A DNA stretch of 64,000 bases from Chitinivibrionales bacterium (GTDB lineage: Bacteria > Fibrobacterota > Chitinivibrionia > Chitinivibrionales > WJKA01). Shown in pieces: positions 48,246 to 63,616 of this stretch. The stretch lies in the NCBI GenBank assembly GCA_038247415.1, contig JBBRUX010000005.1, positions 1-64,000 on the forward strand, read 5' to 3'. The position numbers and the translations under genes were made by a program. Numbering within the stretch: the stretch's first letter is position 1; each line of letters opens with the position of its first letter. Under the pieces are notes generated by a model that saw only the letters and a list, made by a program, of their open reading frames with translations, had not been told where the DNA came from and made no database searches.

Positions 48246-48902
48246 ATGGCCACAAATTTTACTTTTCGGGCTACTCCCCAGCCAACTATTAAAAGAATCC
48301 CCGCTTACCTAGCAATCCTTAAAGAACTGGAACTAGCTGGTCAAATCACCGTTTCTACTACTGATATTGCAGATAGATTAGCCTTGAATCCTATTCAAGT
48401 CCGAAAAGATCTTTCGATAACAGGCATTACGGGTAGACCAAAAATTGGGTACATCACCACAGAACTCATTGCGGGGATTTACAATTTTTTAGGATGGCAC
48501 AATACCAAAGACGCAGTTCTTGTTGGTGCTGGAGCGCTTGGATCAGCTCTTTTAGGATACAAGGGGTTTGCTGGATACGGATTGCGCATTACCGCGACAT
48601 TTGATTCGTCTAAAAAGCTTATAGGCAAAACAATTCATGGCCGAGTTGTTGCACCTATCAACGAGCTTGAAGATTTCATACGCCAAAGCGCTATACGGAT
48701 AGGAATCATTACTGTTCCTGCCGAAGCTGCTCAGGATATTGCTTATCAATGTGTGAGAGCAGGCATTAGAGGGATCTGGAATTTCTCTCCTGTAAAACTT
48801 GCAGTGCCACATCAGGTTGTGGTACAAAACGAAGATCTCTCGAGTGGTCTTGCACTCCTTTCAGTAAAGATTTCCGAAAAGCTTTCAGCAGACTCTAGGT
48901 AG
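48246..48902 (+). CDS. rex: Redox-sensing transcriptional repressor Rex
   Basis: PTIKRIPAYL, QVRKDLS, G.PKIGY, VGAGALGSALLGY, GIRGIWNFSP. Confidence 0.95.
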   Translation: MATNFTFRATPQPTIKRIPAYLAILKELELAGQITVSTTDIADRLALNPIQVRKDLSITGITGRPKIGYITTELIAGIYNFLGWHNTKDAVLVGAGALGSALLGYKGFAGYGLRITATFDSSKKLIGKTIHGRVVAPINELEDFIRQSAIRIGIITVPAEAAQDIAYQCVRAGIRGIWNFSPVKLAVPHQVVVQNEDLSSGLALLSVKISEKLSADSR

Positions 48903-49002
48903 CCTGGATCCTAGACTCTTCACGAAGGCAACGGATACCAGGCAGATTGGTTCTCTCACGGTTTTTTTGTATAAACCATTTCATGAAATAAAGGAGTCTT
49001 AT

Positions 49003-51636
49003 ATGACAAACAAAAATACACATAAAACTGCTCCAAAAGGCATACCCTTGCACAGCGAAGTTGATCCCGCAGGGGTTGTTGAAGCCCTGGTAAACCGCGT
49101 TAAAGCAGCCCAGGAAGTATACGCACAGTTTACACAGGAACACGTCGATCGAATTTTTGAACTGGCTGCCATCGCGGCAAATAAACAACGTATAAGCCTT
49201 GCGAAAGCAGCAAAAGAAGAAACGGGAATGGGTCTGGTGGAAGACAAAATCACTAAAAATCATTTTGCCTCCGAATACATTTACAATAAATATCGCGACA
49301 TGAAGACTTGCGGAACCATCGATCGCGATGATGCAGCCGGTATCATTAAAGTTGCCGAACCCCTTGGTATTATAGCTGGGGTTATTCCCGTAACTAATCC
49401 CACAAGTACAGCAATCTTCAAATCGTTGCTGGCCCTCAAAACAAGGAACGGTATCATTTTTTCGCCTCATCCTCGCGCAAAGAACTGCACTATTGCCGCT
49501 GCAAAAGTAGTACTTGACGCAGCGATACAAGGTGGAGCTCCCCGGGATATTATCGCCTGGATCGATGAACCCACTCTCGAAAGCAGCAACGCTCTTATGC
49601 AGCATCCTGGTATTGCAACCATTCTGGCAACAGGCGGTCCAGGAATGGTTAAAGCTGCATATAGCTCGGGAAAACCAGCACTGGGAGTAGGCGCTGGCAA
49701 TACCCCGGCAGTAATAGATGAAACAGCTGATATTCGCATGGCCATCAGCAGTATCCTTATTAGCAAAACATTTGATAATGGCATGATCTGCGCCTCGGAA
49801 CAGGCACTCGTTGTTGTTGACAGCGTATACGAATCTGTCAAAGAGCATCTGATTGCAGCACGGTGCATGATTCTGAATAAAGATCAACGAGATGCAGTTG
49901 GTAAAACAATAATCATACATGGACGTCTCAATGCAGAAATTGTAGGCCAACCAGCCTCTGTTATTGCACACATGGCTGGAATAGAAATCGCTGCCGAGAC
50001 CAAGGTTCTTGTTGGTGAAGTAACGCGCGTTGCAATGGACGAACCATTTGCCCACGAAAAACTTTCGCCAGTTCTTGGGCTTTTTAAAGCAAAGGATTTT
50101 GCCAATGCGCTTGATATAGCAAGCGCACTCCTTACCATGGGTGGAATGGGTCATACAAGCGTGCTGTATACAAACCAGAATAATGTCGAACGGATAAAAA
50201 CCTTTGGAGAACGCATGAAAACTGGCCGTACACTTATCAATATGCCTGCAAGCCAAGGAGCAATAGGGGATCTTTACAACTTTAGCCTTTGCCCATCGCT
50301 GACGTTGGGATGCGGTAGTTGGGGAGGAAATTCTGTGAGCGAAAATCTAACACCAGAACATCTGCTCAATATCAAAACTGTTGCAATGCGCAAAGAGAAT
50401 CTGCTCTGGTTCAAAGTCCCTGAAAAAGTTTACTTTAAAAGAGGTAGCCTCGAACACGCTCTCAACGATCTTGCTGGCAAAAAAAAGGCATTTATTGTTA
50501 CTGATAGGTTTCTTTTCGATAATGGCCTTTTAGCTCCGCTTATTGAGAAACTGGGCCGTTTAGGTATTTTGTTTGATGTTTTTGCCGATGTAGAACCCGA
50601 CCCAACCATTGCTACTGCTCGTAAAGGAGTTCACGAAATGGCGGGGTTTAAGCCCGATGTAATTATTGCCATTGGTGGTGGTTCGCCCATGGACGCTGCA
50701 AAAATTATGTGGCTCCTCTATGAGCATCCGGAAGCAGATTTCGAAAATCTTGCCATGCGCTTTATGGATATTCGCAAAAGAGTGTACACCTTTCCAAAAC
50801 TTGGAAGGTTAGCAAGCTTTGTAGCAATTCCAACCACCTCGGGAACTGGATCGGAAGTAACTCCCTTTGCTGTAATAACTGATGAAAAAACAGGTATGAA
50901 ATATCCCATTGCAGACTATGAACTTACTCCCGACATTGCTATTATTGATGCAGATCTGGCTGCACGCATGCCAAAAAACCTAACTGCCTATTCGGGGATC
51001 GATGCGCTGACTCATGCACTCGAAGCTATGGTAAGCGTGGTTGCAACCGAGTTTACAACACCGTATGCACTGGAAGCCACTCGCCTGATTTTCGAATACC
51101 TGCCTAAAGCATACGCTCTGGGCGAAGCTGATATGGACGCGCGCGAAAAAGTGCATCATGCATCTGCTATGGCAGGAATGGCTTTTGCCAATGCTTTTTT
51201 GGGGGCATGTCATTCGATGGCGCACAAACTTGGCGCATACTTTCACCTTCCTCACGGACTAGCAAACGCATTGTTAATCGAAGAGGTAATGCACTACAAC
51301 GCAGCAATTAGTCCAACCAAACAAGGTGTTTTTCCTCAGTATACCCACCCGCAAGCTCTGGAACGCTATGCCCGTATGGCAGATTATTGTGGACTTGGTG
51401 GAACAGACCCAATAGATAAATGCGAACGCCTTATTGCAAAGGTTGCCGCCCTCAAGGAAGAACTCGGCATTCCAAAAAGTATTGCTGAGGCTGGAATCGA
51501 TAAAAATGCTTTTATGGCCAAGCTAGACGAAATGGTAGAGGCTGCGTATGATGACCAGTGTACCGGTGCAAATCCACGCATACCAATGATGAGCGAAATG
51601 AAAGAACTCTATTTACAAGCGTATAGTCAGAAGTAG
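49003..51636 (+). CDS. adhE: Bifunctional acetaldehyde-CoA/alcohol dehydrogenase
   Basis: EDKITKNHFASE, TNPTST, GVGAGN, FDNGMICASE, GCGSWGGNS, GGGSPMDAAK, HSMAHKLG; AAGGAG RBS. Confidence 0.97.
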   Translation: MTNKNTHKTAPKGIPLHSEVDPAGVVEALVNRVKAAQEVYAQFTQEHVDRIFELAAIAANKQRISLAKAAKEETGMGLVEDKITKNHFASEYIYNKYRDMKTCGTIDRDDAAGIIKVAEPLGIIAGVIPVTNPTSTAIFKSLLALKTRNGIIFSPHPRAKNCTIAAAKVVLDAAIQGGAPRDIIAWIDEPTLESSNALMQHPGIATILATGGPGMVKAAYSSGKPALGVGAGNTPAVIDETADIRMAISSILISKTFDNGMICASEQALVVVDSVYESVKEHLIAARCMILNKDQRDAVGKTIIIHGRLNAEIVGQPASVIAHMAGIEIAAETKVLVGEVTRVAMDEPFAHEKLSPVLGLFKAKDFANALDIASALLTMGGMGHTSVLYTNQNNVERIKTFGERMKTGRTLINMPASQGAIGDLYNFSLCPSLTLGCGSWGGNSVSENLTPEHLLNIKTVAMRKENLLWFKVPEKVYFKRGSLEHALNDLAGKKKAFIVTDRFLFDNGLLAPLIEKLGRLGILFDVFADVEPDPTIATARKGVHEMAGFKPDVIIAIGGGSPMDAAKIMWLLYEHPEADFENLAMRFMDIRKRVYTFPKLGRLASFVAIPTTSGTGSEVTPFAVITDEKTGMKYPIADYELTPDIAIIDADLAARMPKNLTAYSGIDALTHALEAMVSVVATEFTTPYALEATRLIFEYLPKAYALGEADMDAREKVHHASAMAGMAFANAFLGACHSMAHKLGAYFHLPHGLANALLIEEVMHYNAAISPTKQGVFPQYTHPQALERYARMADYCGLGGTDPIDKCERLIAKVAALKEELGIPKSIAEAGIDKNAFMAKLDEMVEAAYDDQCTGANPRIPMMSEMKELYLQAYSQK

Positions 51637-51670
51637 TGATAATTGTCAAAAAAAGAAATGTGTGTTTAAA

Positions 51671-51705
51671 AAAAAGGGAAAGACAAGAATTGTCTTTCCC
51701 TTTTT
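51671..51705. terminator. Bidirectional terminator between adhE and the convergent signalling operon
   Basis: AAAAAGGGAAAGACAA-GAA-TTGTCTTTCCCTTTTT. Confidence 0.88.
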
Positions 51706-51779: not shown

Positions 51780-52454
51780 TCAGATTTCCCCAATCATAAG
51801 CCCCTTCATCAATTGTAAATATTCTTCTCTCTTGCCATCAAAGTCGACCGGCTTTTGAAAGAACTCAAAAAACCTGCTATGGCGCAATGTCCGATAGAGA
51901 AGATTATTATCGTGCTCGGGATTACCCGTGATGAGAATGAAACGGATATTAGGACGGATTTTATGAACTTCATCGCAGAGCTCATTTCCTCGCATGCCAG
52001 GCATAACTTCATCGGTTATTACAAGTCGCACTTCTGGAGTAACTTTAATGAATTCTAAAGCTTCGAGAGGATCTAAGAATGTTTTTAAATTAAGATCTTT
52101 TGCAAACTTTCGCCTAAAAATAAAGAGATTTTGTTCCTCGTCATCAACATACAGCGCTAGGGGGTTTTCTGTGGGAGAAGGCCCTATTTTTTGTCGTATG
52201 CGGTCAAAAACGAGACCTATTGTTGCATCGTTAAATATTTGAGGCACACAATAGGGCTCTAAATCCAAGCGGCGTCCATCAAAGCGGACTTCAAGCTCAC
52301 GTGCAAATTCAGAAAACGACAAGATGTCAAAGCCATATGCCGTTAGCTTACTATCCTTGTGCAACTCGGAATCGAGCGATTTCAGGTCTTCGTAATCCCC
52401 ACAGATTGTGTCAACCGCAGATTTAATAACTTCGTAGAGGTCAGTGTCTCTCAT
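51780..52454 (-). CDS. Carrier-protein-like domain fused to a receiver (REC) domain
   Basis: N-terminal DSKLTAYGFDILSFSEFARELEVRF resembles an ACP but has Ile at the Ppant-Ser position; REC LYVDDE, ITDEVMP, LITG, QKP; ATGA overlap with the upstream gene. Confidence 0.75.
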   Translation of the reverse strand: MRDTDLYEVIKSAVDTICGDYEDLKSLDSELHKDSKLTAYGFDILSFSEFARELEVRFDGRRLDLEPYCVPQIFNDATIGLVFDRIRQKIGPSPTENPLALYVDDEEQNLFIFRRKFAKDLNLKTFLDPLEALEFIKVTPEVRLVITDEVMPGMRGNELCDEVHKIRPNIRFILITGNPEHDNNLLYRTLRHSRFFEFFQKPVDFDGKREEYLQLMKGLMIGEI

Positions 52455-53641
52455 AGTGAACGCAAGCCTTTCGGAAATTGCGATGTAATATTGAGCATTT
52501 TGAGGGAATCGATAATCTGCTCTGCCATATATTCAATTTCTTCTTCTGTTATACCAAAATATATTGAAAACCGAGCCAAGCTCGTATTTTCGGGAACTGC
52601 AGGAGGTAAAAAAGCAGAAAAAAGTATTTTTCTTTTTTTAAGCTCGCTATATAATTGACACACCGATTCCACTCCTTTAAACATCAATGATACTATCTGA
52701 CATTTACTCGGACCGGTATCGACGCCTTTTTCATTGAGAAGCTTACGAAGAAGTGCTGCTCTGGCATGCATGGTTATTGCACGCTCTGGTTCGCGCATGA
52801 GAATTTCTAATGCCTTGCAATTTCCGGCAGACGTGGCAGGGGTTGGAGCAGAACTAAAAATAACCGATCGAAGCCGATAGGTTAAATAATGGGCGGTTTG
52901 GATATCTGCAATAATAAAGCCCCCATGACCGCCCAATCCCTTTGCAATACTTACCGTTCGCAAGGGAATGCGTGACGCAAGCCCTTGTTCAACAGCTAAT
53001 CCCCCACCTTTTTCTCCGCATAATCCAAATGAGTGCGCTTCGTCAACAACTAACAAACAGCCAGTTTCTTCGCATATATCCACATATTCATGCAAATTTG
53101 CAACGCTGCCGTTAGTACTATAATACGAATCGACGGCTACAATACCAGGACCAAATGTCTTGACAAATTGACGAAGAGATGCTATGTCATTATGTCGAAG
53201 GGGAATTATCCGACTTCCGGCAAAACGCGCGCCATCCCACAACGATGCATGCGCATAGATATCGAGGTACACGGGAATATCCGGGCTTGCAATTGCTTCT
53301 ATAAGCCCAACATTTGCAGTCCAGCCACAGGTAGTAAGCACAATACTTTCTGGGCCTTCTGCCTGAGCAGATTCAGCAATTTTACGCTGAAAATCGCCAT
53401 GAAAACCACTAAAACCACCATATACGACCGAGGCCATTGCACCAGAACCAGTGAGTTCGGTTGCTTTGTTACGTGCAAGCGTTACTTCTGGATGCGAAGA
53501 AAGTCTCAGGTAGTCATTATGATGACAAGCTATGAATCCGTCGCAATCTTCTGGTTGATCAAAAGGAAATGGATTGAGTGCAGCAAGGCGTCCCATTGTG
53601 GGGATCTTATGTTTTTCAAACCAAACGGGTAGCATCGCCAT
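52451..53641 (-). CDS. cqsA: CqsA/LqsA-like PLP-dependent autoinducer synthase (AONS family)
   Basis: NDYL, GWTANVGLI, VYLDIYAHASLWDGARFA, GPGIVAVDSYYSTNG, VDEAHSFG, SIAK (PLP Lys), IFSS; the GW-ANVGL, AH-SLW-GAR and GPG motifs match CqsA/LqsA better than BioF. Confidence 0.75.
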   Translation of the reverse strand: MAMLPVWFEKHKIPTMGRLAALNPFPFDQPEDCDGFIACHHNDYLRLSSHPEVTLARNKATELTGSGAMASVVYGGFSGFHGDFQRKIAESAQAEGPESIVLTTCGWTANVGLIEAIASPDIPVYLDIYAHASLWDGARFAGSRIIPLRHNDIASLRQFVKTFGPGIVAVDSYYSTNGSVANLHEYVDICEETGCLLVVDEAHSFGLCGEKGGGLAVEQGLASRIPLRTVSIAKGLGGHGGFIIADIQTAHYLTYRLRSVIFSSAPTPATSAGNCKALEILMREPERAITMHARAALLRKLLNEKGVDTGPSKCQIVSLMFKGVESVCQLYSELKKRKILFSAFLPPAVPENTSLARFSIYFGITEEEIEYMAEQIIDSLKMLNITSQFPKGLRSL

Positions 53642-53665
53642 CTCGTAATTCCCTTAAAAAAATGT

Positions 53666-54826
53666 TTATACTACTTCTTGAGAAGCAATTTCATAGGCTT
53701 CTACCATGCTGGTACACCCTTGACATCCAATACATCCAGCACTATTTCCAACACCAAAGGATAACCCCCGATGGTGCATTCGTCGAGCAGCCTCCAGATA
53801 CAGCGACACGAGATCATCGAGTGAATGTTTTAGGTAGCTTGGAACCATATTTACAAGATGATTGCTATGAGGACGTACCAAAAGCAGCGTTGTTAGTACC
53901 CCAATAGATGCAAATTCGTCGATGCTTTGTAGAACTTTTTCGTACTTTTCTCCAAAGCCCAGAATACACGTGGTGTTAACAGAATTTTTACCATACGCCG
54001 CAACCGCAGCTTCCCAATTTCTTATATAGTCATCGCGGGAACAGCGCGATTTTCCTGGACAGATTTCTTTGCGAATATCTTCATCGAGGATTTCGAGAAA
54101 AATCCCCAGCGAATCTGCATACTTGGCAGTTTCGGCAATGAGTGACAAATCTTTTACCGGTTCGTGCTGTATATGAACCGAAATGTTCACACGTTCCTTA
54201 ATTTTCTTTACTAAGTCAATAAGTTCACGTACCACGACATCATTATCGGCAAATGTACCAGAAGTAATAGTAAGTGATCGCACTCCCTGTTGCGATGCCA
54301 AAGCTACTGCTTCAACGAATTTATCGATATCTTGTTTGGCTGCCCATTCGTTTATTCCTTTGCCAACCGGCTCAAGTTCACAATAGCGACATTCAAGACC
54401 ATCGGCAAAATGTTTGCATTCGTGGGCATACACCGACACGGCAGTAGCGTAACAATGCGTGCTAATACCTATTTCCATCATTGGTGTACCATCTTTAAGC
54501 GTTGCCCGTAAAAACGAAGGAATCGTTCTGCTTTTAAGCACAGCACCATTTGTTGCCGTTATAATTTTTTTAAGAGAATCATATTCCGATTGGATTGCAT
54601 ATGCCCCAAGCCAATGATCGAGGCCATATATTGGCAAACTTATCATACTCGAAAATTCATTATCCACGGCAGATCGCATATGGAAAGTTTTGCCTTGTGG
54701 ACCCGCACCAGTTCCTTTGGAAATAAAACTGCTGAGGGGAACACCATTTACGGTGGGTGGCGCAATACCCCGAGATTGGAGCTCGAGACGGCGGCGAAAC
54801 TGTGTCATTTGTGGAGAGTTTTGCAT
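53666..54826 (-). CDS. Radical SAM protein, MSMEG_0568/biotin synthase-like
   Basis: LELQSRG, GAGP, non-canonical CKHFADGLECRYC (CX8CX2C), ITSGT, ICPGKS, C-terminal AGCIGCQGC. Confidence 0.78.
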   Translation of the reverse strand: MQNSPQMTQFRRRLELQSRGIAPPTVNGVPLSSFISKGTGAGPQGKTFHMRSAVDNEFSSMISLPIYGLDHWLGAYAIQSEYDSLKKIITATNGAVLKSRTIPSFLRATLKDGTPMMEIGISTHCYATAVSVYAHECKHFADGLECRYCELEPVGKGINEWAAKQDIDKFVEAVALASQQGVRSLTITSGTFADNDVVVRELIDLVKKIKERVNISVHIQHEPVKDLSLIAETAKYADSLGIFLEILDEDIRKEICPGKSRCSRDDYIRNWEAAVAAYGKNSVNTTCILGFGEKYEKVLQSIDEFASIGVLTTLLLVRPHSNHLVNMVPSYLKHSLDDLVSLYLEAARRMHHRGLSFGVGNSAGCIGCQGCTSMVEAYEIASQEVV

Positions 54827-54842
54827 TTTAAAATTCTTTATA

Positions 54843-56501
54843 TCATTTAAAAAGCGTAAGTGAATTGTTAATAAGTCTTTCTTTGATAACTTTACGACGT
54901 TTTTTTCCACTCGATGTCTTCTCGATACTCCCTTTTCCGCAAAAGTAAACATGCGTTAACAAAAGTGCAAAAGATCTGAATATTAAATCCTGAATTTCTT
55001 TACGACGTGCCACTGCATCCGCCGATTCGAGCGGTTTTGTTTCGATAAGCGCATGAAGCTCTGCAACACCCGTTTGAGCATTCTCTAGAGAAAGCACAAC
55101 AGTGCATCCACTGCGAACATTTTCCAAACTTTCGATACACTGCTCGATATCGTCTGGAACAATGTTGCGCCCGCCAATAATAATAAGATCGTCTTTACGG
55201 GAGTGGAAAAAAAGTTCTCCATCATAGGTAAATCCGATATCGTTAGTGCACAGCCAGCCATTTTTAAGTGCCTTTTGAGTCGCCTCCGGATTTTTTAAAT
55301 AACCGGATGTTAAACAAGGGCCTTTTACAAAAATCTCCCCTAAGGCTAAATCTGGCAAAACTTCACCCGCAGTGCTTCGAACTTCAAGCAAAGTACCCTT
55401 AAATGGTTCTCCTATAGAAACAATTTCTAGAGATTCCTTGTCGGATTCATCCGAGAGCGACAGCTTTTCAGATTCGTCTACCCTAACGCGTAGAACCGTT
55501 GCCCCGTCGCTTCGTTTGGTTGAAGTTGCGCCAAGCGCATTTTCGGCCATGCCATAGCCCACGTGAATATGGCGCGATTGCAATTTGTGTTTTGACAACA
55601 AATCTATTGCACGCCGTAAAACAATACCCGTTACTTTTTCTGCACCAAAATACAAATCGAGCCGACTCAAATCGAGAGTGTCTGCCGTGGAATGTCCTAA
55701 AAGCTTAATAGTATGGGCCATTGCCGCGTTGGTTGTAAAATTAAGTCCTGTTTTATGCTCAGCCAACAGCTTAAACCACCTAAGGGGGTTCATCATATAC
55801 CAACGAGGCGAAACAAGAATATTGTCAACACCCTTATATAAAGGAAGCAGAATCCCAATAAAAAGGCCCATGTCATGATTAAAGGGAAGCCAGGATGCAC
55901 AGTGTTTAAGCTCTATCCCCGATGCCAGCGTGTATTCGAACCCAAGCACATCTACTTGGTTTAAAACCATTTGATGAGTCACAATAACACCTTTAGGAAT
56001 TCCCGTGCTTCCCGAAGAATATTGAATAACTGCATACTCACTAGGCGATACGGCAACACGTTCCAGAAAAGGTTTTCCTGTATGTTCTTGCAAATCCTTG
56101 AGCGATATGGCCTGTTTACCGGTGAGCGTACACCATGCTGCGGCCATGGCTTTATCGTCGGCTGTTTCACAAATAATAGTTGCAAATGCGCAACTATGTT
56201 CCACTCTGCCAAGATACTGTTCATAATCTTCGGATAACCCCATTACGGGTCTTAGAGGCACAGCTACTGCACCTAAACGCCAAACAGCTAAAATAATCGT
56301 AACATATTCATGACGATTAGTTAGCAATATACCCACGGTGGATGATTTCCCAACGCCTATTTCTGCAAGGGCGGTAGCATACAAACCAGAAGATTCCCAA
56401 AGATTTGAAAGTTTAAATTCACTTTTCTCTTCTGGAAATTTCCAAACAGGATCATATTTCTGTATGTTTTTTTCTACACTAGCAAGCAATGTATCTTCCA
56501 T
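54843..56501 (-). CDS. Fatty acyl-AMP ligase (FAAL-like)
   Basis: IQYSSGSTGIPKGV, SWLPFNHDMGL, GYGMAEN, RKDDLIIIGGRNIVPDDIE, IEKTSSGK. Confidence 0.85.
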   Translation of the reverse strand: MEDTLLASVEKNIQKYDPVWKFPEEKSEFKLSNLWESSGLYATALAEIGVGKSSTVGILLTNRHEYVTIILAVWRLGAVAVPLRPVMGLSEDYEQYLGRVEHSCAFATIICETADDKAMAAAWCTLTGKQAISLKDLQEHTGKPFLERVAVSPSEYAVIQYSSGSTGIPKGVIVTHQMVLNQVDVLGFEYTLASGIELKHCASWLPFNHDMGLFIGILLPLYKGVDNILVSPRWYMMNPLRWFKLLAEHKTGLNFTTNAAMAHTIKLLGHSTADTLDLSRLDLYFGAEKVTGIVLRRAIDLLSKHKLQSRHIHVGYGMAENALGATSTKRSDGATVLRVRVDESEKLSLSDESDKESLEIVSIGEPFKGTLLEVRSTAGEVLPDLALGEIFVKGPCLTSGYLKNPEATQKALKNGWLCTNDIGFTYDGELFFHSRKDDLIIIGGRNIVPDDIEQCIESLENVRSGCTVVLSLENAQTGVAELHALIETKPLESADAVARRKEIQDLIFRSFALLLTHVYFCGKGSIEKTSSGKKRRKVIKERLINNSLTLFK

Positions 56502-56520
56502 GTAATTCCTTGGTAAATAT

Positions 56521-56769
56521 CTATGTATGAGCTGCGATAAATGTAGCCAGATCATTTAGTGTCCGTAGTTCCTTAATTACTGTAGCATTAGGAATCGCAA
56601 GCTTGAACTTTTCTTCTACGAGTGCTTGAAGCTGCATAAGCGTCATAGAATCAATCATACAATCTTCAATAAGATCTTTTCCTACAACATCCTTAGCTGG
56701 CTGGTCAAAGAGGTGGTGTTCATCACATAAATTAACAAGTGAGGTGAGTATCTGATCTTTATTTGCCAT
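56521..56769 (-). CDS. Acyl carrier protein
   Basis: 82 aa, DLIEDCMIDSMTLMQLQALVEEKF with the Ppant Ser, RTLNDLATFI; AAGGAG RBS. Confidence 0.88.
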   Translation of the reverse strand: MANKDQILTSLVNLCDEHHLFDQPAKDVVGKDLIEDCMIDSMTLMQLQALVEEKFKLAIPNATVIKELRTLNDLATFIAAHT

Positions 56770-56849
56770 TGCACTGCTCCTTAGGAAAAATATGGTTGAA
56801 TGCGCGGGAGATTAACTTTTAGTGAACGAAAATAGATTATTCCCTCTTG

Positions 56850-56878
56850 ATTATACGGGTTTTTGTTTTTTGAGTCAA
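56850..56878 (-). promoter_or_regulatory. Near-consensus sigma70 promoter of the ACP-FAAL-rSAM-cqsA-REC operon
   Basis: Minus strand TTGACT-17 bp-TATAAT. Confidence 0.8.
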
Positions 56879-56896
56879 TTTATAACTTATAATGTT

Positions 56897-56941
56897 TGCA
56901 CGCCATGCCTAAAAAGAAAGTTATCATGCATGCCATGATAA
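56897..56941. promoter_or_regulatory. Candidate regulator site upstream of that promoter
   Basis: Palindrome TTATCATG-N5-CATGATAA (56921-56941) and direct repeat TGCA(C/T)GCCATG at 56897 and 56927. Confidence 0.5.
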
Positions 56942-57000
56942 TGGATAACAAATTGATTTTGCTTAGAATGTCAGCTATTCAAGCGTCAACGATGGCCCAA

Positions 57001-58674
57001 TCAATTATCTTCTGGTTCGACCCGGCGAGCACTTGCATACCGCGCAGTGGCTTCTACCGAGGATGTTTCTGAAATCTGTCGCAAGCGGGCTAGTGCTGCA
57101 GGATGTTCGATATTGTACCAGTCGCGTGGCATTAGATCGCTGCTAAAATCATGACAACCTTCAACCATATCAAGGCCGCGTGGAACAACGTCCGGATTAT
57201 TGAGCACTTGCCGACATCGATGCGCATACAGATACACAATAGCATCCATAAGCTTTCCGGGCTTGTGTTTATGCGAAGGCATTTTTTCGAGAAGCTGCTC
57301 AAACAAGCGTGATGCGTTTGCCATGGTTCCCTCATTGAAATACGCATAAATTCCTTGACGTATAGAATCACGGGTTTCGTCTTTGTATGCTACAACTTCA
57401 CGTGCCTGATGTCCGTAAATTTCAAATACCTCAAATTTTTTATGGTATCCCTTAACGCGCAAAATATCAACCATACGAGAATGCTGATCATCCTGAAGAT
57501 CATCCATGACTTCCTGACTCACCACTATTTCTAATCCATACAGTTTTGCTACCGATTCTAGCCGGGAACACACATTGACTGCAGTACCAATCCAAGTACG
57601 ATCATATTTTTTTTCGGAGCCAATATTCGCTTCCAACACAGAACCTTTGGCAATGGCAATTACATTGGCCATTTTAGGCATGCCAGCTATCACAAGTTGC
57701 TTGTTGTAAATTTGCAAACTTTGTCGCATGAGCAGCGCAGCCTCTACCGCTGTTTTACCATCGGGGAAAATTGCCATCACGGCATCACCCATCAGTTTAT
57801 CAACCTCGCCTCCAGCCGAAAACACTGGGTCAATCATCATTTCAAAATATTTATTAAGAAATTGAGCCTGCACATCTGGGTCGGTCATCGATTCGGTAAG
57901 TGGCGTAAAATTTCTCATATCGCAAATGAGAATAGCTTTATCGCTCATGCGAGGCTTAAATTGACGAGGATCTCGGCCTTGATTAACTTCATTAACAACC
58001 GAGGGTCTTACAAACGTTGAAATAATAGCATTGCGAGCAACGAGTTCAGAATTTTTATGTTCAAGCACCAGTTGTCTACGCAGGGCATCTTCGGCTCGTA
58101 GGCGCTCTTTTGTGGTATCCAGCGAAATAACATAAAAGATGTCAAGCGCAAGCTTTATCATGGCAATAACCATAGATGAAAGCCATGCAATTGCGAATGC
58201 TCCTACCATATTGGAGAGCGTGGATACAGCAGATCCTGTTTGTATAAGGTAACTCGCTGCCGCGCAGATAAGGCCAAGAGGAAAAGCAACTACCGAAAAA
58301 TAAACTTTAGAAGAAGTAAATCCATACACAAAACCTGCCCACATCAGCGAGGCATACCAATACTGGTTCATATTGTTATGCATCATGAGGTTTGCAAATA
58401 CAAACGGGAACATAAAAACAAGCGCTGCTTCCCAATACACTTTATGCCATGTTTGAAATGGAGAGTTTTTGGGAAAAAATACGAAAGGGATAGTGATCGC
58501 AACAATAATCAACCGGAGCAACAAATCTTCGTGATAGCCCAGATAAAATTTACAAATCAGATAAAAGAGCATGTTTGAGAGCGGAGCAATTACACCCATA
58601 AAGAAGGCAAACTTCTCGGTAGTATAAAATTTGGGAGAGCGGGTGATCCCAATGGCAGTTTTAAGATAATCCAT
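57001..58674 (-). CDS. Class III adenylate cyclase with an N-terminal CqsS/LqsS-like multi-TM sensor domain
   Basis: Sensor FY.I..F...YHEDLLLR...FPFVFANLMMHNN...WYASLM; coiled coil; cyclase ICDMRNFT, VDKLMGDAVMAIF, NIGS...DRTWIGTAVNVCSRLE. Confidence 0.82.
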   Translation of the reverse strand: MDYLKTAIGITRSPKFYTTEKFAFFMGVIAPLSNMLFYLICKFYLGYHEDLLLRLIIVAITIPFVFFPKNSPFQTWHKVYWEAALVFMFPFVFANLMMHNNMNQYWYASLMWAGFVYGFTSSKVYFSVVAFPLGLICAAASYLIQTGSAVSTLSNMVGAFAIAWLSSMVIAMIKLALDIFYVISLDTTKERLRAEDALRRQLVLEHKNSELVARNAIISTFVRPSVVNEVNQGRDPRQFKPRMSDKAILICDMRNFTPLTESMTDPDVQAQFLNKYFEMMIDPVFSAGGEVDKLMGDAVMAIFPDGKTAVEAALLMRQSLQIYNKQLVIAGMPKMANVIAIAKGSVLEANIGSEKKYDRTWIGTAVNVCSRLESVAKLYGLEIVVSQEVMDDLQDDQHSRMVDILRVKGYHKKFEVFEIYGHQAREVVAYKDETRDSIRQGIYAYFNEGTMANASRLFEQLLEKMPSHKHKPGKLMDAIVYLYAHRCRQVLNNPDVVPRGLDMVEGCHDFSSDLMPRDWYNIEHPAALARLRQISETSSVEATARYASARRVEPEDN

Positions 58675-58833: not shown

Positions 58834-60027
58834 ATGATAAACTTTGATACTATGAACTCAGAAACCATCCTTGATTTATTTGATGTTGAACCAATAAACG
58901 AAAAACGCATATCTGAACGTGCATTTCTTACCGTTGCGGTCACCCTTGAAATTGGGGATCGGCTTGTACGCGGCGTCGAATGCAAAAACGTCAGTCTTGG
59001 CGGTATGTTCCTAATTTCGAAGGTTCATATTCCCCTTGGAAGCGTTGGAACAGTTACTCTTACAAAACGCTGCGATAAAAAAAGAGTGAGCTTTTCTGCC
59101 GATTTTGAAGTCGTACGTCACGAAGGAGAAACAAAAGAAGATATTGGGCTTGGCCTTAAATTTATTCGACTTACCGATGAAGATAGACTTGCAGTCGAAT
59201 TCATTGTTGATTTCCGCACGGGTGTAACCCTTCGGGAACGATTAGATTTGTCGGAAGAGAAAATTTCGGACATCCGCTTTAAAATTGCGCAAACCCAAGA
59301 AGAACTAGCTGGAGCATTTTCACTTGTTCACGATTCCTATGTAACGCGAGGTTACATGGATCCCGACCCAAGCGGTATGCGCTTGAGCATCCACCACGCC
59401 ATGCCTCTAACAACAGTTGTTATTGGCGTTCAAAACAATCGAGTTATTGCTGCTTCGGCACTTTTTTTAGACTCCCCCATTGGCTTGCCCATGGACAATC
59501 TTTACAAGAGAGAGCTTTCTGAATTTCGCCAAAACAGGCGACTCATAGCAGAAATTGGGGCATTTGCCGTTCACCAAGATTTGCGAGCATTTACAACAAC
59601 ACTCGTGCTGCATCTTCAAAAGCTGATGTTTTTATACACCTTTAGATACCTGAATCTCGATGATATTGTTTTGGTAATAAACCCGCGACACAAGCTTTAT
59701 TATCAACATGTCTTATTAGCCAACCAAATTGGGCCCGAGCGCGTTTACCAAAAGGTAAAAGGAAATCCGGCCATTGCCATGTCGATGGATGTTCGCAAAG
59801 CACAAGATCGTTTTAAAGAAAGCTATTCTACCCTACCCGACAATAAAAACTTGCATCGCTTTTTTTACGAACATACAAGCGAATGCCTACAAATGCCTGA
59901 ACTTCGTCAGCCTATTGTCACGTGGAATCGCGCATTGCTGCATTATTTTTTCGAAGAACGGTCGAAACTTTTCGAGACAACAAGCGCCGATACCATAAAA
60001 TTTATTCTTAGCCATTACGAGAATTAA
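58834..60027 (+). CDS. PilZ domain fused to a FeeM-like N-acyl amino acid synthase (GNAT) domain
   Basis: RISER (RxxxR) and NVSLGG PilZ motifs; FKIAQTQEELAGAFSLVHDSYVTRGY, DSPIGLPMD, AEIGAFAV, INPRHKLYY, GNPAI. Confidence 0.78.
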   Translation: MINFDTMNSETILDLFDVEPINEKRISERAFLTVAVTLEIGDRLVRGVECKNVSLGGMFLISKVHIPLGSVGTVTLTKRCDKKRVSFSADFEVVRHEGETKEDIGLGLKFIRLTDEDRLAVEFIVDFRTGVTLRERLDLSEEKISDIRFKIAQTQEELAGAFSLVHDSYVTRGYMDPDPSGMRLSIHHAMPLTTVVIGVQNNRVIAASALFLDSPIGLPMDNLYKRELSEFRQNRRLIAEIGAFAVHQDLRAFTTTLVLHLQKLMFLYTFRYLNLDDIVLVINPRHKLYYQHVLLANQIGPERVYQKVKGNPAIAMSMDVRKAQDRFKESYSTLPDNKNLHRFFYEHTSECLQMPELRQPIVTWNRALLHYFFEERSKLFETTSADTIKFILSHYEN

Positions 60028-60028
60028 T

Positions 60029-60811
60029 ATGTCAACTGCAACAAGTGCTGGTTACGTTTCTGCCGACTATCTCAAAGCACTTGCGCAGGCAGCAGAACCC
60101 ATAAAAAAGCGCATACGAGATTTGCTTGCGCTAGGCTCCAACTCAAAAATTCTTGATGCGGGCTGTGGTCCTGGCACCGATACTATTCCTTTAGCACGTT
60201 TACTGAATAATTCGGGCATAATTTGTGGCATGGATGCCGATAGATCTATGATTCAAGCCGCGCAAACCCGCATACAAGTAGAATGGTTCCAAAATCTTTA
60301 TCATTATGTCGCTAACGCCACTGCAATTCCTTGCAAAACCAACAGTTTTGATGCAGCATTTTGTGATCGGGTATTACAACACATTAAAGATGCTCATAAC
60401 GCAGTCGCCGAAATGTGTCGTATAGTAAAGCCTGGTGGGAAAATTGTACTTGTCGATTCAGATCATTCCTCACTGAGCATTTCGACAAATAATTCATCAA
60501 CAGAATGTGCATTGCGAACCTGGAGAACTCAAAGATTACACAATGGCCTCGCTGCTCGTAATCTTGGCACCTATGCAATTAAAGCAGGGCTATTACTAGA
60601 AAGTATAGAGTGCATCCCTTTTCTATCTCGCAGCTATGCAGGATTTAGGCTCGGAACAGCTGCAGATCTTGTTGAGCAAGAAGCCGTTACACGAGGGATT
60701 ATATCGTCCGATCAATTAGATTCATATAAATCTGACCTGGAAGATCTCGATCGCGCCAATGCATTTTATTCTGTAATTCCTATGATAATACTCTCAGCAA
60801 CTAAACCGTAA
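60029..60811 (+). CDS. Class I SAM-dependent methyltransferase
   Basis: ILDAGCGPG, FDAAFCDRVLQH, RIVKPGGKIVLVDSD. Confidence 0.88.
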   Translation: MSTATSAGYVSADYLKALAQAAEPIKKRIRDLLALGSNSKILDAGCGPGTDTIPLARLLNNSGIICGMDADRSMIQAAQTRIQVEWFQNLYHYVANATAIPCKTNSFDAAFCDRVLQHIKDAHNAVAEMCRIVKPGGKIVLVDSDHSSLSISTNNSSTECALRTWRTQRLHNGLAARNLGTYAIKAGLLLESIECIPFLSRSYAGFRLGTAADLVEQEAVTRGIISSDQLDSYKSDLEDLDRANAFYSVIPMIILSATKP

Positions 60812-60818
60812 TACAAAC

Positions 60819-61217
60819 GTGAACCAAAACACAACAATTCAAACGACTATTCAGATTGCAGTGAGGCATCCAGAATCTGCATCTGCGCTAATGGCTAAAA
60901 CTTTTGCAGCGCATTTCGATGGTGCACAGTGGATAGATCGTGAGATGCGACTCCAATTTTGTATCTTATTTTTGGGCAATTTAATCGATAGCAATATCGA
61001 AGAATCTGTTGGTGCGGCTCTTATAGACCGGTTAGAGGCTCGATCTCTTGAATTTGGAATGCGAATGCTTAAGCGCAATCCTGATACAGGACTAAAAATT
61101 CTCATTGTTCTCATAATGAAAGAACTAAGAACCCGCCAAAAGTTCGAATCAGAAGAGCAAATGTCATTCTATAAAGAAATCCTTGCTCGCTTTTTCCCCG
61201 AAATTAATTCTCACTAA
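60819..61217 (+). CDS. Hypothetical protein
   Basis: 132-aa helical ORF with GTG start, in the same operon. Confidence 0.6.
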   Translation: MNQNTTIQTTIQIAVRHPESASALMAKTFAAHFDGAQWIDREMRLQFCILFLGNLIDSNIEESVGAALIDRLEARSLEFGMRMLKRNPDTGLKILIVLIMKELRTRQKFESEEQMSFYKEILARFFPEINSH

Positions 61218-61332: not shown

Positions 61333-63616
61333 ATGAATGATGCAAACCTTCGTGGTACCACCGTGGCTCCTGAATTGGAATGGCATAGCAATCCGATGTT
61401 GCGCAATGTGTCAAAACGCATTGTTCAGCCCATGATCAGATATCTTGACGCTGAATTTGGTACTACCATTACGAATCAAATTATTGCCGAAAGTGATCAT
61501 GATCGTGATTTTTTTGAAGATGTTTATGGATTTATGCCCATTGAAACCACCGAGAAAATGTTTGCGAGTGCAATCCGCATAACTGATAACCCCGACTTCG
61601 CCTACAAAATGGGAAAAGAAATCTGGAAATACACTCCAACAATTCAAGCCCTTCTTGGAATAACCGTAGCTACCCCTTCTTTGCTTTTTGAGAATATGAA
61701 CAACATCGAAGGAAAAGCCGTACGTACAACAATAGTTGACACTCAAAAATTTGGGGCTTCCAAATATAGGCTTAGCATTAGCTTTAGGGGCGGCTTTGTG
61801 GAACCAGCCAATGCATGCCGTAATAGGCATGGAACCTACGAATCGGCCACACAAATGTTCGGTTTACCACCATCCAAAGTTGAGCACCCCCAGTGCCGAT
61901 TTAGAGGCGACGATCACTGCGTGTACGATATTACCGTCCCTGAACAATCATTTTTTATTTATCAAAAAATTTCGTTTATAATTGGCTTTTTGGGTTTGGT
62001 AGGCTTTGGTCTCTTTGCACTTTTGCACTCCCCTATTCTTGCAATAGTTGGAAGTCTTTGCATCCCGTTAGCGCTCGGTTCGTACCTCTTTTTCTTGAGA
62101 TCGCGCCTTACCGCAAATTTACGGTGGATTGCAAATGCAAAGCATTCAATTGAGGAGAATAGCAAAGATGTTTTAACTGAAATGAATCGCACGAAACATT
62201 TGCATGAGCTTACAAGCAACCTCAATAGCTGCTTATCTCCCCTATCTGTCGCGAAAGCAGCAACACATTCCCTTACCCACGATTTCAATTACGGCTCTGG
62301 GCAAGTTTGGCTTCTTAAAGACGACGACTCCCTTATGTGTACAGCAACATCTGGGTTAGCACAAAATCTTGAAGCCTCGGTGAAAAGTATTTCGTATTCC
62401 ATATCCGAGGGAATGAATCGCCCCGAAAGCTTTATTGCACATGTTATAGGCCGTAAAGAAATTCTCCTCATTAATGATGTTAAGACAAGTACACAAACCT
62501 TCATTGCACCCACTCAAGATTTGCTCCAATTGATCAATCCATCATCCTTTATTATTGTGCCGACTGCTTTGCTTTATTATTGTGCCGATTCTCGAAAAAA
62601 ACAAAGCAGTCGGCATGATCATTGGCGCAAACCATGAGGCTGGTGTTCAAGTAAAATATCTGGATCGTGTTATTTTCGAAGCACTTACGCTTGTCGTTTC
62701 AACAACATTGGCAAAGGCCAAAGTCTTTGAAAGCATGGAACGAAAACTCGAAAAAAGAAAGCAACTCTTGCGCGATCGTCAAGATGAATTGCTTATAGCC
62801 CGAAAGATATCAATTCAAAACGAAAAGGTCTCTGCGCTGGGGGAAATGGCCGCAGGCGTTGCGCACGAGATTAACAATCCGCTTAATTTCCTTGTTAATA
62901 TAGTAAGCGAGCTCGAACGAGACACAAAAGGGTTGCATGAAATAGCTGCACTCGGTAACACGTTTGCACCACAAAACATTCGCCATGAAATCGATAAAAT
63001 CTTTGTCGATTACAACCTTGCCGAGCGCATCACTGAATCGGACTATGTTTACACGCTCATCCGACAATCTCTTGCCCGTGCACAGAAAACGGTGAGTAGT
63101 CTGCGCATTTTTGCGCGCCAAGCCGGTAACGATGGAGTAAAACCCGAACCATTGTGCGAATTGATTCGTAGTGCATTCGAGATTATTCCACAAAAATATC
63201 GAGCAGATGTAACCCTTACGTGCGAGCTTGGTTCAGAGTGCGCGGTGCATGTTAATCGTATAGAATTCTCTCAGATAATTATTAATATCCTTACCAATTC
63301 CATAGAAGCCATGAATGGCAAAGGATCAATAAAAATTGACTTAGAAGAAACAAATCGATCTCATCTGGTTTCAATTTCAGATACTGGTTGCGGGGTTCCT
63401 CCCGAAAATAGAGCACTTATTTTTAAAGCCTTTTTTACCACACAAAATAAAGAACAGCATACCGGCTTAGGGCTTACGGTTGCGCTGGAACTTTCTCATA
63501 AAAATGGCGGTACTATCGAACTCGCACAAAAGCAACCCACTCTGGGAGCATGCTTTATAATTACTATACCTAAACCGTTCAAACCTTCGGCAGAGCTGGA
63601 TGCCCATGCCGCTTAA
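61333..63616 (+). pseudogene. V4R-like/2TM/GAF sensor histidine kinase, frameshifted by a 25-bp insertion
   Basis: VEHPQCRFRGDDHCVYDI (V4R-like), 2 TM, GAF, GVAHEINNPL H-box, N/G1/F/G2 boxes; 17-bp direct repeat CTTTATTATTGTGCCGA at 62547 and 62572; removing 25 bp restores NPSSFIIVPILEKNKAVG. Confidence 0.8.

Follow-up and report, generated by a model that had tools for sequence, protein, structure and literature searches.

A CqsA-sister synthase gene beside a putative CqsS-type receptor-cyclase gene in a Chitinivibrionales genome: a candidate alpha-hydroxyketone-type signalling locus with cyclic AMP output

Gene content and organization of the locus

The locus described here lies in a 64,000-nucleotide stretch of a Chitinivibrionales genome (hereafter the window: positions 1 to 64,000 of contig JBBRUX010000005.1, assembly GCA_038247415.1) and combines a pyridoxal phosphate (PLP) enzyme related to the Vibrio synthase CqsA with a membrane-bound class III cyclase whose sensor domain resembles that of the receptor CqsS. 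The PLP enzyme is encoded in a minus-strand operon together with an acyl carrier protein (ACP), a ligase similar to fatty acyl-AMP ligases (FAAL), a radical S-adenosylmethionine (SAM) protein and a receiver (REC) protein. Handles beginning with G, L and C denote genomes, loci and contigs, respectively, and the host genome is G000. The features of the operon and of the cyclase gene are as follows.

51780..52454, minus strand: X-REC (224 aa), an N-terminal ACP-fold domain without the carrier serine (GFDILSF) and a C-terminal receiver domain
52451..53641, minus strand: CqsA-sister alpha-oxoamine synthase (AONS-family PLP enzyme), PLP lysine K234, DEAHSFG and AHAS motifs kept
53666..54826, minus strand: radical SAM protein, MSMEG_0568-like, C179-x8-C188-x2-C191 and a C-terminal CxxCxxC; reading frame open to 54952
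54843..56555, minus strand: FAAL-like adenylate-forming ligase, AMP-binding domain (E = 4.6e-50) and DIP2-like C-terminal domain
56521..56769, minus strand: acyl carrier protein, PP-binding domain (E = 2.4e-7), carrier serine S41 in the motif IDSMT
57001..58674, minus strand: receptor-cyclase, CqsS/LqsS-type membrane sensor domain (residues ~1-200), coiled linker, class IIIb cyclase domain and C-terminal extension of ~130 aa
56850..56878, minus strand: sigma-70-like promoter site TTGACT-17-TATAAT (11/12 matches) ahead of the ACP gene
~51668..51705, minus strand: intrinsic terminator hairpin, 16-bp stem, UUC loop and U run; RNA fold z of -3.97, with 0 of 200 shuffles as good

An earlier note on this DNA, made from the letters alone, had described an operon with its own promoter and terminator and a membrane cyclase directly upstream. 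The open reading frame (ORF) list, Pfam and NCBIfam placed all six genes where the note had put them, in the order ACP, FAAL, radical SAM, PLP enzyme and ACP-like/REC protein on the minus strand, and the membrane class III cyclase gene (57001-58674) lies directly upstream of the operon on the same strand. Packing within the operon is tight: the ACP and FAAL ORFs overlap, the radical SAM and PLP genes are 24 nt apart, and the PLP and REC genes overlap by 4 nt. The strong promoter-like site at 56878-56850, which agrees with the promoter that the note had seen, follows the cyclase stop and precedes an AAGGAG ribosome-binding site ahead of the ACP start; promoter-like sites in the region numbered 20 against a shuffle mean of 17.4, no excess, and thus only this single best site is worth citing. 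The terminator likewise has its counterpart in the hairpin at 51668-51705, which stands between the REC stop and a convergent adhE stop and is common to both genes, and which was not among the sites listed by a consensus terminator scan. That adhE gene, bifunctional, and a Rex-type redox repressor gene occupy 48246-51636 on the plus strand, beside the locus and convergent with it, a pairing that fits an anaerobe.

Phylogenetic placement of the PLP synthase

Among NCBIfam models the PLP enzyme scored best against CqsA (NF005526, 294.7 bits), followed by bioF (231), serine palmitoyltransferase (SPT, 207) and Kbl (176); Pfam assigned only the generic Aminotran_1_2 family. Its best solved relatives were the CqsA structures 2wk7 and 3hqt (E = 1e-51), then SPT and AONS, and the alignment with 2wk7 ran across residues 37-381. 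Residues K234, D200 and H203 (in DEAHSFG) and H131 were invariant across 21 family sequences, as was the AHAS motif. Against the CqsA model, 26 of 29 family proteins scored 290-319 bits and the remaining three fell below E = 1e-85, compared with 478-697 bits for five reference CqsA proteins.

A maximum-likelihood tree of 68 rows was built with two Vibrio CqsA genes (both with CqsS neighbouring) and the Cupriavidus, Streptomyces and Tistrella genes as CqsA references, with annotated kbl and bioF genes added; a mis-extended ORF, L004, was excluded from tree building as well as from the family scan. The 37 rows of the window's family formed a clade (support 99) whose sister was that of the five true CqsA rows (99); the two joined at 99, and a branch of 0.98 (support 99) set the pair apart from BioF, SPT and Kbl. 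The sequence at 52451-53641, which the earlier note had proposed to place in such a tree, thus did not group with BioF, SPT or Kbl (SH-aLRT 99, with LqsA and JqsA left out of the comparison), and a BioF or SPT identity was rejected on this tree. Elsewhere in the host genome, on contig C30, lies a distinct BioF-like gene, and this one did group with BioF. The note's term "CqsA-like" held insofar as CqsA, not BioF, SPT or Kbl, is the nearest relative, but membership in CqsA itself did not, given a score of 294.7 bits below the 428-bit cut-off and the position in a sister clade.

Within the family, clade A (15 rows, support 96) was the sole clade with a signalling neighbourhood; it contained the window enzyme, its paralogue on contig C17, Chitinispirillum and Chitinispirillales proteins at 58-59% identity, and loci from Fibrobacteria metagenome-assembled genomes (MAGs). 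The paralogue belongs to a second synthase/X-REC pair of the host genome (L011, contig C17, 8746-13237), 52-53% identical to the window pair, in which genes for an amine-oxidase-type flavoprotein and a flavodoxin/4Fe-4S protein lie upstream of the synthase gene. Elsewhere in the family, two CqsA-family genes stand in tandem on one Fibrobacteres contig (L038:295-2925, clade C).

Another 16 of the 37 rows made up clade B; they came from Gammaproteobacteria, Myxococcota, Acidobacteriota and other groups and shared 43-48% identity with the window enzyme. Two of its loci, L018 and L027, carry genes for a FAAL, a fatty-acid desaturase, the PLP enzyme, a sulfotransferase, DUF1254/DUF1214 proteins and a short-chain dehydrogenase/reductase (SDR), with an MMPL transporter gene nearby, and two others, L021 and L040, combine the PLP enzyme with an SDR and a long class III aminotransferase. 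The clade B operons at L018:9980-16536, L027:4359-14626 (which holds the MMPL transporter) and L033, all from Gammaproteobacteria-type MAGs, look from their gene content like a pathway for a sulfated amino-lipid. Because such distant family members sit in lipid-type operons, a signal role for the window enzyme is drawn from its linkage to a receptor and not from the enzyme alone. Many family proteins, those of clade B often among them, are automatically named "CAI-1 autoinducer synthase"; these labels call for caution, as about half of the family over which they are spread seems to produce lipids and not signals.

A CqsS-type sensor domain on a class IIIb cyclase

The N-terminal 200 residues of the cyclase matched no Pfam family even at E = 5, and in a word-index search their sole match was their own protein. 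By BLASTP against CqsS of V. campbellii, residues 74-155 of the long ORF aligned with CqsS residues 37-120 (E = 3e-4), and a second Vibrio CqsS aligned in the same register (E = 0.21). Two profiles were then compared, one of the N-terminal ~215 residues (membrane domain and linker start) of five cyclases, namely the window's and four from L014-L016, and another built from three CqsS/LqsS-type kinases (N-terminal ~200 residues), of which two were from Vibrio and the third, from Cupriavidus, is encoded directly after its CqsA. In hhalign they matched with a probability of 97.3 and E = 1.9e-11 over 113 columns; a rerun gave a score of 69.4, whereas the kinase profile in reverse scored 19.8 and none of 30 column shuffles exceeded 21.0, and since these controls were far lower, membrane composition is not the cause of the match.

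The cyclase and CqsS domains share the motifs YE(S/N)..LR and P..F....L.N..N.(Y/V)W..S, and the corresponding cyclase residues are E49, R54, P90, N100, W106 and S109. A passage in a review assigns discrimination of the C3 group of the ligand to W104 and S107 in transmembrane helix (TM) 4 of V. cholerae CqsS and places conserved binding clusters in TM1-3. W106 and S109 of the cyclase line up with the W..S pair in the CqsS proteins of Vibrio and are, if the V. cholerae numbering is shifted by four residues as we infer, the counterparts of W104 and S107. The rest of the sensor domain remained unaligned, and the residues F162 and C170 of CqsS, the tail-length gate in TM6, lie beyond the end of the alignment (~TM4).

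The cyclase-derived profile found 258 matches at E ≤ 0.001 among 1.84 billion representative proteins. Domains were scanned in 93 of the 150 matches listed (P0125-P0274), with proteins under 300 aa skipped and within a limit of 50,000 residues; the tryptophan was nearly invariant in these 93 and invariant in the five cyclases. HATPase_c occurred in 46 of the scanned proteins, HisKA in 35, REC in 27 and Hpt in 8, so that most of what the profile finds are hybrid kinases built like CqsS; a cyclase domain (Guanylate_cyc) was present in 20, GGDEF in nine, SpoIIE and LytS-type His_kinase in three each, and a Ser/Thr kinase in one. Judged by these architectures, the domain is a modular CqsS-type sensor, and its fusions to cyclases form a sizeable natural group.

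The catalytic half of the receptor-cyclase was identified by Pfam as Guanylate_cyc, with no HisKA-HATPase(-REC) kinase domain in the protein, and it aligned with the adenylate cyclase OaPAC (5x4t, E = 1.7e-24). Class III cyclases rely on two metal-binding Asp residues, a substrate-specifying Lys with Asp or Thr, and transition-state Asn and Arg residues. The residues aligned with OaPAC are the metal Asp residues D252 and D297, K293, T360 (seven residues before the catalytic Asn), N367 and R371, a set that we take to be the class IIIb, ATP-specific pattern; with its catalytic residues intact and of the ATP type, the cyclase looks active. The C-terminal extension of ~130 aa gave no match. The host genome contains three cyclase matches and ten cNMP_binding matches, and the cNMP-binding proteins could read cyclic AMP (cAMP); it contains a single match to the CqsS-like sensor domain. 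The earlier note's suggestion that the receptor makes cAMP gains from these comparisons a concrete basis in homology, as the membrane domain of the cyclase is homologous to the receptor domain of CqsS.

Linkage of synthase and receptor across genomes

A synthase family member (E ≤ 1e-80) was found in 14 of 296 genomes of the phylum, a set that includes the host and whose genomes are related to each other, so that the counts are not independent. Eight of the 14 were of clade-A type (48-100% identity); the remaining six (43-46% identity) all belonged to one family. The sensor-domain profile matched 26 of the 296 genomes, a count that takes in the unpublished G253. The CqsS-like domain was present in all eight clade-A genomes and in none of the six others with a family member. 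Possible "orphan" receptors, with one to four sensor-domain proteins and no clade-A synthase, were seen in, for example, G248-G252, G054, G055, G061, G237 and G238.

In five of the eight clade-A genomes, synthase and receptor-cyclase genes lay within 10 kb on one contig (4.4, 9.2 and 3.1 kb apart, and adjacent in two); in the window the receptor-cyclase is 3.4 kb upstream of the synthase, and on a 2.9-kb metagenome contig the two are adjacent and divergent. Clade-A loci were also counted once each (n = 13: the window, L011-L017, L023, G040, G039, L110 and L111). Several genomes match at the same contig coordinates as L014-L017 and L023, and the genome and locus lists are thus not independent. 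X-REC adjoined the synthase in 12 of the 13 loci, and in the thirteenth, L110, the contig ends 253 nt past the PLP match; a receptor-cyclase was within reach in six, a homologue of the GAF histidine kinase described below in eight, and a PilZ and/or FeeM protein in five. One 20-kb stretch of G040 holds the PLP enzyme, X-REC, two kinases, a B12-radical SAM protein, an AMP-binding enzyme, the cyclase (47% identical to that of the window over its full length), a divergent PilZ-FeeM gene (43%) and a methyltransferase (34%).

Conservation of the cyclase beside the synthase, on which the earlier note had made its case depend, was therefore borne out in six of 13 clade-A loci, and a chance neighbourhood of the cyclase was rejected. 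The co-occurrence of all six genes was borne out in part: synthase, X-REC and cyclase recur together, but the ACP, FAAL and radical SAM genes were in none of the 12 other clade-A loci. Synthase, X-REC, receptor-cyclase, GAF kinase and PilZ-FeeM recur together in related Fibrobacterota-like genomes.

X-REC and the GAF histidine kinase

The receiver domain of X-REC retains D104/D105, the acceptor D148, T176 and K201, all invariant in 14 homologues. A profile of the N-terminal 96 residues matched the NodF ACP in the Protein Data Bank over its full length (E = 1.2e-4), with weaker matches to other carrier proteins. Receiver domains accounted for most of the fold matches to the whole-protein model, and the N-terminal domain was therefore modelled on its own; this model (pLDDT 88) had a four-helix carrier topology, and most of its 50 listed Foldseek matches were carrier proteins by title, with TM-scores of 0.5-0.73 and weak E-values (≥ 0.12). 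None of the 14 homologues kept a Ser at the phosphopantetheine attachment position: the Asp of the carrier motif was followed by I, L, F or Q in ten, and four homologues bearing insertions aligned SD, QK or TE there. The earlier note's "ACP-like/REC" protein is thus upheld by the NodF match and the receiver domain, with the addition that the carrier serine is gone and the ACP-like domain cannot carry an acyl group. A predicted complex of the PLP dimer with this domain scored 0.61 against 0.45 for one control, from which nothing was concluded.

The kinase gene lies on the far side of the divergent neighbours described below.

61333..63616, plus strand: sensor histidine kinase, cytoplasmic N-terminal domain, two TM helices, GAF, HisKA and HATPase domains; ORFs 61333-62637 and 62555-63616

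In relatives the kinase is a single gene of 725-784 aa with the same domain order. In the window a tandem duplication of 25 nt, two copies of ctttattattgtgccga plus 8 nt, occupies 62547-62596 and shifts the frame inside the GAF domain; this repeat was absent from the output of Tandem Repeats Finder. Contigs from two sister runs of the same study (X2 and X3) span the site without the duplication and are otherwise identical, while run X1, the possible source, has it; the break is thus a variant or an assembly artefact and not a fixed loss. Sub-threshold matches of the N-terminal domain to V4R (E = 0.12), HNOB (0.02-0.035), Arabinose_bd (3e-4 to 0.19) and solved H-NOX proteins (0.46) hint at an H-NOX/V4R-like fold. 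In seven loci (L012-L014, L023, L111, G040 and G039) the kinase gene stands directly after X-REC and convergent with it, an arrangement that makes the two a likely cognate pair.

The ACP-FAAL-radical SAM cassette

The ligase has an adenylate-forming fold, and its top NCBIfam rows were long-chain-fatty-acid ligase and fatty acyl-AMP ligase subfamilies, each under its cut-off; the best FAAL model, NF006624, gave 262.5 bits against a cut-off of 600. Characteristic of FAALs is an insertion that blocks CoA ligation. The radical SAM protein scored 132.9 bits against the MSMEG_0568 family model (cut-off 303.7) and bears the label "radical SAM / MSMEG_0568 family" in the Atlas; alignments to a homologue make the start at 54826 likelier than that at 54952. 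It had no solved relative, a metagenome scan with it as query gave no match, and no paper pairing MSMEG_0568 with radical SAM was found in the open-access literature. Homologues (E ≤ 1e-10) occurred in four of the 296 phylum genomes, the host included, and only one, in G060, was close (49%).

The ligase, with the ACP gene immediately upstream, forms a pair that is kept in G060, where ACP (32%), ligase (39%) and radical SAM (49%) genes lie together with a methyltransferase gene in between. This G060 cluster (L105, contig C20, 655-17937) comprises the cassette, a thiamine pyrophosphate (TPP) enzyme, a START/cyclase-like protein, two more radical SAM genes, a cysteine desulfurase-rhodanese, GT2, UbiA, a polyprenyl synthase and methyltransferases. 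Other acyl-activating genes appear in clade-A loci: in G039 an AMP-binding gene is directly upstream of the PLP gene, and in G040 the interval between the GAF kinase and receptor-cyclase genes (L106:15682-18436) holds genes for a B12-binding radical SAM protein and a short AMP-binding enzyme, a different acyl-activating and radical pair at the same place in the system. With adenylate-forming enzymes of their own in G039 and G040, acyl activation near the synthase is a recurrent theme.

The earlier note had made ACP, FAAL and radical SAM part of its proposed system, but they do not belong to what is conserved, as none of the 12 other clade-A loci has the cassette and G060 has it in a separate cluster; on this distribution, the cassette is an add-on specific to the host genome. 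In our reading, the signalling core is conserved, and the genes for substrate supply and tailoring vary around it. As five closely packed genes follow one promoter-like site in the window, it is simplest to assume that the synthase there receives its acyl chain on the ACP, possibly after modification by the radical SAM enzyme. Alternatively, the cassette could be a recently inserted, functionally separate module, serving another acceptor or merely co-transcribed, with the synthase using acyl-CoA as CqsA does. Its absence from the other clade-A loci would fit, as would its recurrence in G060 beside a TPP enzyme, methyltransferases, UbiA and a polyprenyl synthase without a CqsA-like gene; the single strong promoter-like site and single terminator of the five-gene unit argue the other way, as do the different adenylate-forming enzymes near the synthase or cyclase in G039 and G040. 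A separate cassette would bear only on the note's idea of an ACP-borne, radical-SAM-modified acyl chain and would be compatible with a signalling role of the locus; it seems unlikely to us.

Divergent neighbours

Three plus-strand genes separate the receptor-cyclase from the kinase.

58834..60027, plus strand: PilZ-FeeM fusion, PilZ domain with cyclic di-GMP (c-di-GMP) motifs RISER and NVSLGG and an N-acyl amino acid synthase-type acyltransferase domain
60029..60811, plus strand: SAM-dependent methyltransferase, found after PilZ-FeeM also in G040 (34% identity)
60819..61217, plus strand: 132-aa protein with no family match

The PilZ-FeeM gene is divergent from the receptor-cyclase gene, and this arrangement is kept in G040 and L015. 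Relatives of the fusion were located at L108:5762-6982, L015:14923-16743, L014:15741-17525 and L023:7805-9433. Its domain composition points to a c-di-GMP-gated acyltransferase for a lipid or signal, of which no description was seen.

Proposed mechanism and alternatives

The reading that we favour, with modest confidence, is that the locus encodes signalling of the CqsA/CqsS type (alpha-hydroxyketone-like) with a receptor that acts through cAMP and not through a phosphorelay; it would probably be a previously undescribed variant of alpha-hydroxyketone-type signalling. The CqsA-sister enzyme would condense a donor derived from an amino acid with an acyl thioester, giving a lipid-like alpha-amino-ketone or hydroxyketone. 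In the host genome the acyl donor would probably be an acyl-ACP, which the FAAL and ACP of the same operon would provide and the radical SAM enzyme might modify. The product could then enter the membrane and bind the CqsS-type six-helix domain of the neighbouring cyclase, and binding would alter cAMP synthesis by the class IIIb domain, with cNMP-binding proteins as possible readers. A second branch may consist of the GAF histidine kinase and X-REC with its serine-less ACP-like output, for which feedback on the synthase would be the most economical role. Product identity, donors, ligand-receptor pairing, sign of regulation, diffusibility and X-REC feedback are what we infer in this scheme.

Several observations weigh against this reading. 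The PLP enzyme falls short of the curated CqsA cut-off (294.7 against 428 bits) and outside the true-CqsA clade, and the 68-row tree itself came from a quick search with SH-aLRT support alone, no bootstraps, and neither LqsA nor JqsA. Annotated clade B loci resemble lipid pathways, and with clade B in such operons the family as such is not a signal-synthase family. On the receptor side, the hhalign match spans only about TM1-TM4, 113 of ~215 columns, and the domain is modular, with GGDEF, SpoIIE and Ser/Thr kinase outputs also, so that hydroxyketone binding by all of its members is an assumption. The sensor domain occurs without a clade-A synthase in 18 of the 288 other genomes, the receptor domain is on a different contig from the synthase in three of the eight clade-A genomes (two of these assemblies being fragmented), and there is no cyclase within the 20 kb read around the paralogous synthase on C17. 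Relatedness within the genome set bears on all such counts. Lastly, the cassette is missing from the 12 other clade-A loci, and its cluster in G060 lacks a CqsA-like gene.

The main rival explanation is a regulated lipid or secondary-metabolite pathway, in which the PLP product would be a long-chain amino-ketone for a membrane or secreted lipid (sphingoid-, sulfonolipid- or aminolipid-like) and the cyclase, kinase and REC protein would sense membrane state or another cue and control synthesis. It draws on the clade B operons, with their desaturase, sulfotransferase, SDR and MMPL genes; on the FAAL and dedicated ACP, the usual loading route for long fatty acids, a combination that also accompanies bacterial SPT; on the conservation next door of a FeeM-type N-acyl amino acid synthase; and on the G060 cassette, which stands among prenyl and lipid genes. 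Against it, the adjacent cyclase has a CqsS-homologous ligand domain with the head-group residues kept, the adjacency of synthase and receptor in six loci repeats the cqsA-cqsS pattern, and clade A loci are without the SDR, sulfotransferase and transporter genes of clade B. We hold such a pathway to be improbable. The weakest alternative, an ordinary BioF, Kbl or SPT with signalling genes nearby by coincidence, deserves next to no credence: it has in its favour the same fold, 26-33% identity of the PLP enzyme to BioF-like genes of related genomes and the generic Pfam assignment, and against it the separate BioF-like gene on C30 that clusters with BioF, tree support of 96-99 splitting the family from BioF, SPT and Kbl, and the conserved neighbourhood.

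The signalling reading can be extended to a complete, undescribed autoinduction circuit in Fibrobacterota-like anaerobes. A natural CqsS-type receptor-cyclase would sense the CqsA-sister ketone, and the two would be the first ligand and receptor matched in nature for a class III cyclase membrane domain; the resulting signal would reach the GAF kinase, whose partner regulator, with its pseudo-ACP, would dock on the synthase and gate the access of acyl-ACP in a feedback loop, and a c-di-GMP-gated FeeM would link in a second lipid output. In its entirety this is speculative, and we think it quite unlikely to hold.

The receptor role of the six-helix membrane anchors in adenylate cyclases is still debated, and the case for it has so far been made with engineered CqsS-cyclase chimeras (PMC4821796). 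The locus supplies a natural receptor-cyclase with a candidate ligand synthase beside it, and both genes can be cloned for a direct test of pairing. Were the signalling reading correct, signalling of the alpha-hydroxyketone type would also reach anaerobic relatives of the Fibrobacteres, cAMP as an output, and a receiver protein with an ACP-like output, a combination for which no description was found.

Comparison with known systems

Searches of open-access papers and preprints (without supplements) returned nothing on CqsA with Fibrobacteres, one unrelated review on CqsA with FAAL, ACP or oxoamine synthase, and nothing relevant on CqsS with GGDEF, sensor domain or LqsS. The earlier note knew of no system with this architecture, and none is described in the open-access literature searched. 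To judge from that literature, neither the natural fusion nor its linkage to a CqsA-family gene nor the ACP-like/REC protein has been described before. The portion seen of a 2022 survey of two-component quorum sensing reports neither a CqsS N-terminal domain family nor a cyclase fusion (PMC8895600).

The closest known system is CqsA/CqsS of Vibrio, the CAI-1 system, in which CqsA turns acyl-CoA and SAM or aminobutyrate into an amino- or hydroxy-ketone signal. Profile score, solved structures and tree all make CqsA the nearest relative of the window synthase; the membrane domain encoded by the neighbouring gene is homologous to the ligand-binding domain of CqsS, with the W..S pair kept; and synthase and receptor are neighbours, as are cqsA and cqsS in two Vibrio records. 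In contrast, the window synthase represents a sister family under the curated cut-off, and whereas CqsS feeds a phosphorelay through HisKA-HATPase-REC, the output of the window receptor is a class IIIb adenylate cyclase. The window system also adds the conserved ACP-like/REC protein, the GAF kinase and PilZ-FeeM, and where CqsA uses acyl-CoA, according to a passage in the review, the window operon has its own ACP, FAAL and radical SAM genes.

The LqsA/LqsR/LqsS (LAI-1) system of Legionella likewise encodes a response-regulator-type protein in the synthase cluster. To our knowledge LqsR has no ACP-like domain; its structure (6sy9) ranked 13 among the fold matches of the X-REC receiver, a likeness of generic receiver fold only. 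On the Legionella side, the sole Legionellaceae row in the sequence set was a BioF-like gene. In sphingolipid synthesis, bacterial SPT works with a dedicated ACP and an acyl-ACP synthetase. The window operon resembles that system in combining an AONS-family enzyme with its own ACP and an adenylate-forming ligase, and differs from it in that the PLP enzyme lies outside the SPT clade and the operon has no ketoreductase or ceramide synthase genes.

For the cyclase, the catalytic domain is close to that of OaPAC, with the same Lys/Thr pair and the same metal, Asn and Arg residues (E = 1.7e-24); OaPAC, a soluble protein, is under the control of a BLUF light sensor, unlike the window cyclase, which would be regulated, if at all, by its membrane domain. 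Fusion of a CqsS-type receptor to a cyclase has been engineered: in a CqsS-Rv1625c chimera, CAI-1 regulated cAMP synthesis (Beltz et al., 2016, eLife, PMC4821796). The same article surveyed 1616 six-helix modules, among which the 56 of CqsS type were all from His kinases and clustered apart from all cyclase anchors, with weak local matches (PMC4821796), and a 2025 review still presents CqsS-cyclase chimeras as a synthetic proof of concept (PMC12414865). The window protein has the design of the CqsS-Rv1625c and CqsS-AC2 chimeras, in which a class III cyclase domain is attached to a six-helix receptor of the CqsS type; the chimeras are synthetic, whereas the window fusion is natural, is of class IIIb and not IIIa, and is encoded beside a candidate synthase for its ligand. 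The window receptor-cyclase looks like a natural counterpart of the engineered receptor-cyclase fusion.

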